Assembly (NCBI RefSeq): GCF_056746865.1
Contig: NZ_CM163382.1
Strand: one strand, 5' to 3'
Length of the DNA: 64,000 bases
The position numbers and the translations under genes are program-made. A model generated the notes under the pieces. The model was not told where the DNA came from and did not search any database. It saw nothing but the letters and a program-made list of their open reading frames with translations. Below are positions 25,675-27,170 of the stretch, one piece after another. Numbering within the stretch: position 1 is the first letter of the stretch; each line of letters begins with the position of its first letter.

Positions 25675-26018
25675 ACAAACGGCGCAGGGTAGCTCCCTGT
25701 GCCAGTTCCATATGATTTTGCTAATTCTACTCACTGGTATATTCACTCGTTAGGCTTTGGCCCGCAGATATATTAATGTTTTCCATCCTGCCGCAACAAA
25801 ACCCCACACACGATTGTATGTTTTTTAGTCATCAAGGTGAATAGAGGTATTTTATGGCTATGACCTTTTTCACCTCCCTGCCAATAGTATCATGCTAAAC
25901 CTCTCATCTATGTTTATTGCGCCATAATAGTCAACAAGTATTTCAAAAAAGTCCCAAGCAAATTATAATGCTGGAGTTTCATAATGTCCCTTTAAAAACC
26001 ATTTTAAGAAGAGCTATT

Positions 26019-27170
26019 ATGTCCCTCCCTACAAATTTTAATGATATTCTTCGTCTTTTTGAAAAAGATTACGATACAGCCAAAGAAGATAATGCCTTAA
26101 GTGCACGCGGACAATTTCTGCAACTTTACCCCCTTAATCGCCTAAAAAAAATGACGCTTGATGACTATGTCATCGGCAAAGGCACGGCCTCATTTTGTGC
26201 TTGTGTTGAAGTAAAAACCAGAACATGGGCAAATATGCAAGGTGCGACGGCGCTCAAATTTGGTATTTATTATGGAAAATCAAAATCAGATCCAGCCGTC
26301 CGCTATCGTTTTACTCAGAAATTTGGCGATGATGATAGTACTAATAAAGAAGTTTTCGCTAATGTTAAAGACGCTTTACTAGACCTAATACAGTCAGGGA
26401 AAGAATTAGATTTTAGAGCGATTGACGAGAACCCCCTATCCCAAATGTTTAAGGCTAAAATATTGAGCCTTTACTTTCCAGAACACTTTATAAACATTTG
26501 CAGCAAAGATCATCTTAAAGAAATTGCTATGAAAATGGGTATAAAAGAGCAACAGTTTATTAGTAAATATCAACATTTGTTATTCAAGAAAAAACTAGAG
26601 CATAAAATCACCCGAAACTGGAGCAATCCAAAATATATGTCCTTCCTTTATGCCCAGTTCATACGTAAGGATCTTAGCAGCGCTCCTGCTGTGATAGTTA
26701 AAAAACCACAAAAAAGAAACCATCCCGAAGTCAATTTCGAAGAAATAACGGACAATCGTGATTTAATAGGCAAAAAAAGCGAAGAATATGCATTAAACTG
26801 GGAAAAAAACCGCCTAATCGGTCTCGGCTATTCAAAACTAGCTGAGGAAATAGATGATCGCCGTAATCGTCCAACTTATGGTTACGACTTTCTTTCTTTT
26901 AATGCCCCAGGTGATGAGCGATACATCGAAGTAAAATCAATTGGCCGAGATGGAAAAGAGGGAGCATTCCGTTTTTTCCTCTCAGGAAATGAACTCACCG
27001 TTTCTAATTTAAGTAACCACCGTAAAAACTATTATTTTTATCTTGTACAGTATGGGAAAGATGGAGAGCCATGCAATCTATATGTAAAACATGCTCAAGA
27101 TCTTTACACTAATAGTGAAATGACCCCTTGTGCTTACGTTGTTAGGTTCGATCTGGAAGAACCTGCTTAA
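26019..27170 (+). CDS. DUF3883/NOV-like predicted PD-(D/E)xK nuclease-domain protein (start uncertain; ORF opens at 25917)
   Basis: AT-rich insert inside a GC-rich sugar module; C-terminal region YGYDFLSF...ERYIEVKS...FRFFLSGNELTVS...YYFYLV fits the D...E-x-K nuclease pattern of DUF3883; AAGAAGAG Shine-Dalgarno before ATG 26019. Confidence 0.55.
   Translation: MSLPTNFNDILRLFEKDYDTAKEDNALSARGQFLQLYPLNRLKKMTLDDYVIGKGTASFCACVEVKTRTWANMQGATALKFGIYYGKSKSDPAVRYRFTQKFGDDDSTNKEVFANVKDALLDLIQSGKELDFRAIDENPLSQMFKAKILSLYFPEHFINICSKDHLKEIAMKMGIKEQQFISKYQHLLFKKKLEHKITRNWSNPKYMSFLYAQFIRKDLSSAPAVIVKKPQKRNHPEVNFEEITDNRDLIGKKSEEYALNWEKNRLIGLGYSKLAEEIDDRRNRPTYGYDFLSFNAPGDERYIEVKSIGRDGKEGAFRFFLSGNELTVSNLSNHRKNYYFYLVQYGKDGEPCNLYVKHAQDLYTNSEMTPCAYVVRFDLEEPA

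Follow-up and report, generated by a model that had tools for sequence, protein, structure and literature searches.

A PD-T4-1 single-gene anti-phage nuclease in a variable cargo slot of an ssrA-associated island of Escherichia coli

The closest described system to the gene considered here is PD-T4-1, one of 21 defense systems that a functional selection recovered from isolates of E. coli (Vassallo et al. 2022, Nat Microbiol, PMC9519451). The supplement to that paper lists PD-T4-1 as "DUF3883", validated (T4) (Table S1), and as a 1203-bp open reading frame (ORF) cloned from strain UMB0934 in a 1430-bp region that adds 193 bp on its 5′ side and 34 bp on its 3′ side (Table S2), while the HHpred result published there places DUF3883 at residues 271–360 of 400 with 98.9% probability. 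The 1430-bp fragment, carried with its native promoter on a low-copy promoterless vector, was reported to protect E. coli K-12 from T4, and how orphan DNases recognize phage is described by the same authors as unknown. A preprint on the E. coli protein, EcPD-T4-1 (10.1101/2025.07.10.664194), reports defense against T4 and, unusually, restriction of Bas21 as well. Mass photometry is said there to show a dimer, with nuclease domains predicted to form its core, and in the in vitro assays reported, at 50 nM or less, ssDNAs were the only substrates cut, together with nicking of plasmid, and no dsDNA was cleaved, T4 genomic DNA included. Bas19–25 make up the Queuovirinae of the BASEL collection, seven phages with DNA carrying 7-deazaguanine modifications (PMC8594841), and judging from its number Bas21 would be among them. 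Two other groups of enzymes invite comparison. DUF3883 is the catalytic part of modification-dependent YenY4I (PUA-DUF3427-DUF3883) and of the McaZI group (DUF3427-DUF3883) (Lutz et al. 2019, NAR, PMC6765204), which share with PD-T4-1 a C-terminal DUF3883 catalytic domain of the PD-(D/E)xK type, the combination of one or more sensors and a nuclease in a single NTP-independent polypeptide, and a location on mobile elements or in defense islands. However, their sensors are PUA-superfamily and DUF3427 domains whereas that of PD-T4-1 is an unrelated helical N-terminal domain, and although DNA cleavage in vitro is common to YenY4I and PD-T4-1, dependence on modified cytosine is known for the former, in contrast to the ssDNA cutting and plasmid nicking of the latter. 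For activity in vitro, YenY4I required Mn2+. Shedu, or PD-T4-8 (DUF4263), is likewise a single-gene PD-(D/E)xK defense nuclease that has a regulatory or recognition region at its N-terminus and, as in PD-T4-1, oligomerizes through the nuclease core, but it belongs to another nuclease family, is a tetramer and is reported in the preprint to degrade all dsDNA in vitro (10.1101/2025.07.10.664194).

The window analyzed here, a 64,000-nucleotide stretch of E. coli DNA, contains an AT-rich gene that is PD-T4-1, a single-gene nuclease already named and experimentally validated; the finding is thus one already known, and the gene described by Vassallo et al., the PADLOC family PDLC04021 and the EcPD-T4-1 of the bioRxiv preprint are the same gene with nothing material differing. 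The PADLOC PD-T4-1 profile (PDLC04021) matched with E = 1.3e-204 and 677 bits over profile positions 4–382 of 383. Gene-specific parts of the published cloning primers, PD-T4-1-R and PD-T4-1-F (Table S8, PMC9519451), have unique exact matches at 25775–25792 (+) and 27184–27204 (−), and distances in the window equal those in Table S2, i.e. a 1430-bp clone with flanks of 193 and 34 bp around an ORF at 25968–27170. These matches and equal lengths indicate that the window holds the very fragment shown to give T4 resistance, and the functional unit is accordingly given the extent of the cloned protective fragment, 25775–27204 on the + strand. Of 5426 complete genomes, 131 contained a 1.7-kb region around the gene at 99% identity or more, chromosomal every time, with the gene annotated in these 131 E. 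coli genomes as "DUF3883 domain-containing protein". Judged by the primer matches, the equal lengths and the at least 99% identity among the 131 E. coli copies, the allele is probably the same as the validated UMB0934 allele. There was no partner gene common to six genomic contexts of homologues, indicating a single gene without an obligatory partner. The first-pass annotation of this DNA had proposed a plausible single-gene defense, which was right and had been demonstrated beforehand for PD-T4-1, but it missed that the gene is a named and validated system.

The one difference from the deposited PD-T4-1 is the probable start codon. The gene lies in an uninterrupted ORF on the + strand, with its stop ending at 27170 and candidate starts at 25917 (TTG), 25968 (ATG) and 26019 (ATG), of which RefSeq uses the second (25968–27170, 400 aa, WP_000889014.1). 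We favor the third, 17 codons 3′ of the RefSeq start, which is probably the true one and gives a coding sequence at 26019–27170 of 383 aa. This is because the 120 closest homologues, of 375–382 aa, all align from the MSLP position of the 383-aa form, and because a promoter-like site on the + strand at 25942–25969 (TTCAAA, 16 nt, TATAAT; 10 of 12 matches in a consensus scan, and promoter-like by that consensus match) has its TATAAT overlapping the RefSeq ATG. This site lies inside the cloned fragment. In the 400-aa form, the PADLOC match likewise starts at residue 18 (residues 18–399). The TTG at 25917, where the gene had earlier been taken to begin, is on the evidence of the homologue starts and the overlapping promoter-like site probably not the start. 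Residues are numbered below on the 383-aa form.

Two domains may be recognized in the protein. The C-terminal domain, aa 243–383 (26745–27167, +), is a DUF3883/NOV_C nuclease domain with the restriction-endonuclease-like PD-(D/E)xK fold; Pfam NOV_C (PF13020, formerly DUF3883) matched residues 255–348 with E = 2e-13 over model positions 2–84 of 91, in agreement with the published HHpred result. A DUF3883/NOV assignment with this fold had been suggested from the letters of the sequence, and the profile match bears it out. The alignment and the codons read from the sequence place a catalytic motif at 26886–26936 (+), consisting of D290 (26886–26888) and E304-V-K306 (26928–26936). D290, E304 and K306 were invariant in 45 of 45 aligned homologues at 49–66% identity, as were E255 and E262 on the helix preceding the motif, and from the PD-(D/E)xK fold D290, E304 and K306 would form the active site.

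The N-terminal domain, aa 1–222 (26019–26684, +), is all-helical and is presumed to be the substrate-recognition module. It contains a strongly conserved loop, W70-A-N-x-Q-G-A-T-x-x-K80-F-G-I-Y-x-G86, which is of low confidence in the structural model. Pfam gave no family match in the first ~250 residues, searches of NCBIfam and PHROGs with the whole protein gave no match, and PDB sequence searches with the whole protein and with an N-domain profile gave chance hits only, with no solved homologue. There was no likeness by sequence or fold to known modified-base readers, and a recognized modified-base-reading domain (SRA, PUA/EVE, DUF3427, McrB-N and similar) is absent from PD-T4-1 itself. The domain is nevertheless widespread, with its profile matching 2150 representative clusters (50% identity) at E ≤ 0.001 and 262 at ≤ 1e-30. 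Among the best 150 of those clusters, 79 had DUF3883, 33 had another C-terminal domain and 38 were fragments; Pfam applied to 24 of the 33 identified that other domain as HNH in 15 (E ≤ 0.001), with an HNH motif visible in the consensus. Some longer proteins with the N-domain have an additional N-terminal DUF3427 or, weakly, EVE domain, and a PADLOC type IV restriction profile (mREase_IV) matched the C-termini of three N-domain proteins. Foldseek comparison of the N-domain fold with AFDB50 gave probability 1.0 and TM 0.70–0.79 with proteins named as HNH endonuclease, EVE domain-containing, DUF3427 domain-containing and AAA+ ATPase. The AAA+ partners (A0A2T2W154, A0A951PR82, A0A8J4EGT6 and A0A1V1I034) are possibly McrB-like; Foldseek is the sole source of the link to AAA+ proteins, and a second, word-indexed homologue search for AAA+ fusions from HNH-type N-domains returned DUF3883, HNH or unannotated proteins only. 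Relatives such as UniProt A0A2V1H0H4, A0A3N1XN15 and A0A1V1I034 thus have a homologous or same-fold N-domain (hmmsearch E down to 1e-40, TM 0.70–0.79) but carry an HNH or AAA+ effector where PD-T4-1 has DUF3883, and are themselves uncharacterized. The N-domain is therefore a mobile, swappable module on alternative nuclease or NTPase effectors. Because the same domain is fused elsewhere to HNH, AAA+, EVE or DUF3427, it is probably a target-recognition module, and modular pairing with alternative effectors is the pattern expected for the recognition domain of restriction-like enzymes. The first-pass annotation had left some 250 N-terminal residues without a family and proposed a possible sensing domain, and both the null family searches and the swappable-module pattern fit that proposal.

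The composition of the gene is consistent with an origin separate from that of its neighbors. Sliding GC was 0.34–0.40 over 25800–27200, against 0.58–0.65 directly upstream and 0.54–0.58 downstream. The PD-T4-1 ORF has GC 0.374 and GC3 0.310, compared with GC 0.609 and GC3 0.775 for the Gfo/Idh/MocA gene, 0.538 and 0.608 for hxlA, 0.570 and 0.651 for hxlB, and 0.578 and 0.752 for the ptsG-like gene, so the description of an AT-rich gene between GC-rich flanks holds and composition is not uniform with the neighbors. The sugar-gene backbone as a whole (22519–25665 and 27239–32798) has GC 0.54–0.62 and GC3 0.61–0.79, and E. coli core genes within the window (recN, smpB) have GC of ~0.51–0.52. The backbone is thus itself GC-richer than the host, with PD-T4-1 far AT-richer than either, and the sugar-utilization backbone also looks foreign to E. 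coli. As a separate observation, many Salmonella fragments and some distant homologues of PD-T4-1 are labeled "hexulose-6-phosphate synthase" in public databases. The role in sugar metabolism that this name on Salmonella fragments would imply was considered and rejected as annotation carry-over from adjoining hxlA, from which the error looks to have been inherited.

The gene is carried on an island that has inserted immediately past ssrA (tmRNA, 7961–8323), in which an integrase, AlpA and a DUF927 protein are followed by an AT-rich Hachiman-like cassette and an HTH gene, then by a sorbitol-type PTS operon with Gfo/Idh/MocA (+), PD-T4-1, a convergent hxlA-hxlB-pgi-like-ptsG-like operon (−), and SgrR. 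Blastn comparison of the window with the island of E. coli E04 showed backbone segments 88% and 95% identical, with homology halting at 25665 and restarting at 27239. These breaks coincide with the stop codons of both flanking genes (Gfo/Idh/MocA ends at 25674 on the + strand and hxlA at 27242 on the − strand) and define a variable cargo slot, 25666–27238, unstranded, between the 3′ ends of the two convergent sugar operons. The E04 slot (L002 13383–15095) holds instead two unrelated hypothetical genes, the first AT-rich, encoding 210 aa and with no family match, and the second encoding 266 aa with only a weak nucleotidyltransferase match (NTP_transf_2, E = 0.006). These two genes are candidate defense genes because of the slot they occupy. 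A search around the PD-T4-1 slot for direct repeats or transposon ends found none. The compositional contrast and the E04 homology break, with other genes in the slot, bear out the earlier idea of a separate later insertion. More exactly, PD-T4-1 fills a slot with exchangeable cargo where two convergent operons of a mobile island meet, and this island has defense genes in other slots as well.

Related islands extend this pattern. In Salmonella enterica, a copy of PD-T4-1 occupies the same slot in the same backbone, and PARIS (L003 3665–5811; AriA E = 4e-27, AriB E = 5e-47) stands in place of the Hachiman-like cassette; in E04, the equivalent of the window's ~16475–22518 is just a 90-aa gene. 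This region is a second exchangeable defense slot of the same backbone. The ssrA island may thus be described as a backbone plus slots, one filled by PD-T4-1 or unknown genes and another by a Hachiman-like cassette or PARIS, or left nearly empty, and from this organization uncharacterized slot genes become candidate defense genes. Another lineage of PD-T4-1 in E. coli (L004–L006; L004 8001–9143), of 380 aa, matched the PADLOC profile with E = 7e-188 and was 66% identical over the N-terminal domain. The same ssrA site is used here, but the integrase is a different one; the PD-T4-1 gene comes immediately after it and has as neighbors a type III-A retron (PRTase and RT), a 1437-aa protein lacking annotation and a helicase of the UvrD type. 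The surroundings of more distant homologues included OLD-like, KAP NTPase, type I RM, AbiEii and integrase genes, and no partner gene was conserved.

Overall, the data are likely explained by a stand-alone two-domain anti-phage nuclease with its own promoter, residing in a cargo slot of the ssrA island and attacking phage DNA directly. Identity, defense and nuclease activity were established by others, and the present analysis contributes the domains, the conserved residues, the modularity of the N-domain and the genomic context. PD-T4-1 would be transcribed from its own promoter as a constitutive dimeric nuclease. The N-domain would then most likely select a feature of phage DNA, either single-stranded or nicked replication or recombination intermediates or a hypermodified or other phage-specific feature, after which the DUF3883 domain, with its predicted active site, would nick or cut the selected nucleic acid; such direct attack could stop phage replication. 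Both the feature recognized and the basis of sparing self DNA are, in this scheme, extrapolated from the domain architecture and published activity. Against it, the ssDNA-only specificity in vitro offers no obvious explanation of why T-even phages and Bas21 are restricted and most other phages spared. The gene here is an annotation result and not a discovery, and the remaining interest lies in the mechanism of PD-T4-1 and its uncatalogued N-domain, which, with ~2150 clusters, is a concrete handle on what the protein recognizes.

An alternative explanation could be that PD-T4-1 is a minimal type IV enzyme, in which the N-domain reads hypermodified bases, i.e. glucosyl-hydroxymethylcytosine in T-even phages and 7-deazaguanine in Queuovirinae, and DUF3883 then cuts. 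This would fit with the hypermodified DNA of both restricted phages, T4 and Bas21 (the latter placed by its number), with the use of DUF3883 as catalytic domain in the modification-dependent YenY4I and McaZI group (PMC6765204), and with N-domain partners (EVE, DUF3427, HNH, AAA+) that are typical of type IV systems, as well as with the three mREase_IV matches; moreover, a methyltransferase is not annotated within 20 kb either side of PD-T4-1. But this would not account for the lack of dsDNA cleavage by purified EcPD-T4-1 in the published assays, where T4 genomic DNA was among the substrates (10.1101/2025.07.10.664194), and the N-domain matches no known modified-base reader. Its position beside EVE or DUF3427 in longer relatives suggests that the N-domain is itself not the modification reader, and Vassallo et al. 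comment that their orphan DNases bear no resemblance to type IV systems (PMC9519451). A type IV restriction-like factor, as first suggested for this gene, is therefore not established by the published in vitro data, and we regard it as rather unlikely. A broader proposal is that the N-domain is a new class of DNA-feature reader (of hypermodified bases, or of single-stranded or branched DNA) plugged into at least three kinds of effector (DUF3883, HNH and the possibly McrB-like AAA+), with PD-T4-1 the minimal member of a large unrecognized type IV-like family. This we put forward tentatively; if true, the family targets phages that evade classical restriction-modification, such as T-even phages and Queuovirinae.

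Abortive infection, in which a phage protein or the state of infection unleashes a non-specific nuclease on host and phage DNA and kills the cell, seems improbable. Of the 21 systems of Vassallo et al., 12 are reported to behave as abortive infection, but direct immunity is given for 7 of the 11 DNase-like systems (PMC9519451). Ordinary plasmid was nicked and ssDNA cut with no evident requirement for sequence or modification, implying that control is needed in vivo, and a trigger encoded by the phage could account for the narrow range of phages affected; however, the purified protein was reported to show activity at 50 nM or less in the absence of any activator (10.1101/2025.07.10.664194), and no antitoxin or regulator gene is conserved beside PD-T4-1 in the homologue contexts. 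Finally, the gene could serve a non-defense role here, as an island nuclease with a selfish or maintenance function or as a decaying passenger, but the ORF is intact and at least 99% identical in 131 E. coli genomes, the same fragment gives phage resistance when cloned, and the catalytic residues are all conserved, making this exceedingly unlikely. Direct attack on phage DNA by a stand-alone nuclease thus remains the preferred reading.

Several other features of the window may be of interest. The Hachiman-like cassette (16825–21786, +) is AT-rich, with GC of about 0.28–0.31, and encodes an MBL-fold protein (PADLOC LmuA/RTasMBL/Avs1a-like, E = 3e-61), a 407-aa protein for which PADLOC, Pfam and NCBIfam gave no match, and a HamB helicase that is split. 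Two ORFs, 19262–20464 and 20503–21786, correspond to HamB profile positions 4–400 and 413–842 of 845, and a run of seven A at 20448–20454 lies just 5′ of the stop of the first, such that one added A fuses both ORFs in frame. According to the listed annotations, the same split occurs in ~131 cassette-bearing E. coli genomes and so is not a sequencing error; the run could mark a frameshift that inactivates the gene, or be a slippery tract subject to phase variation. A third stretch absent from the E04 island, 10378–13691, contains hypothetical genes and a helix-hairpin-helix protein, and the corresponding E04 slot holds a 979-aa DEAD/DEAH helicase with weak PbeA and type IV restriction matches and a poly-gamma-glutamate hydrolase family protein. 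Rfam identified an ALIL pseudoknot (IS3-family frameshift element) at 37222–37338 (+) and a tRNA gene at 48697–48769 (−), in an AT-rich stretch with GC 0.33–0.39 that lies well away from the island's ssrA end.
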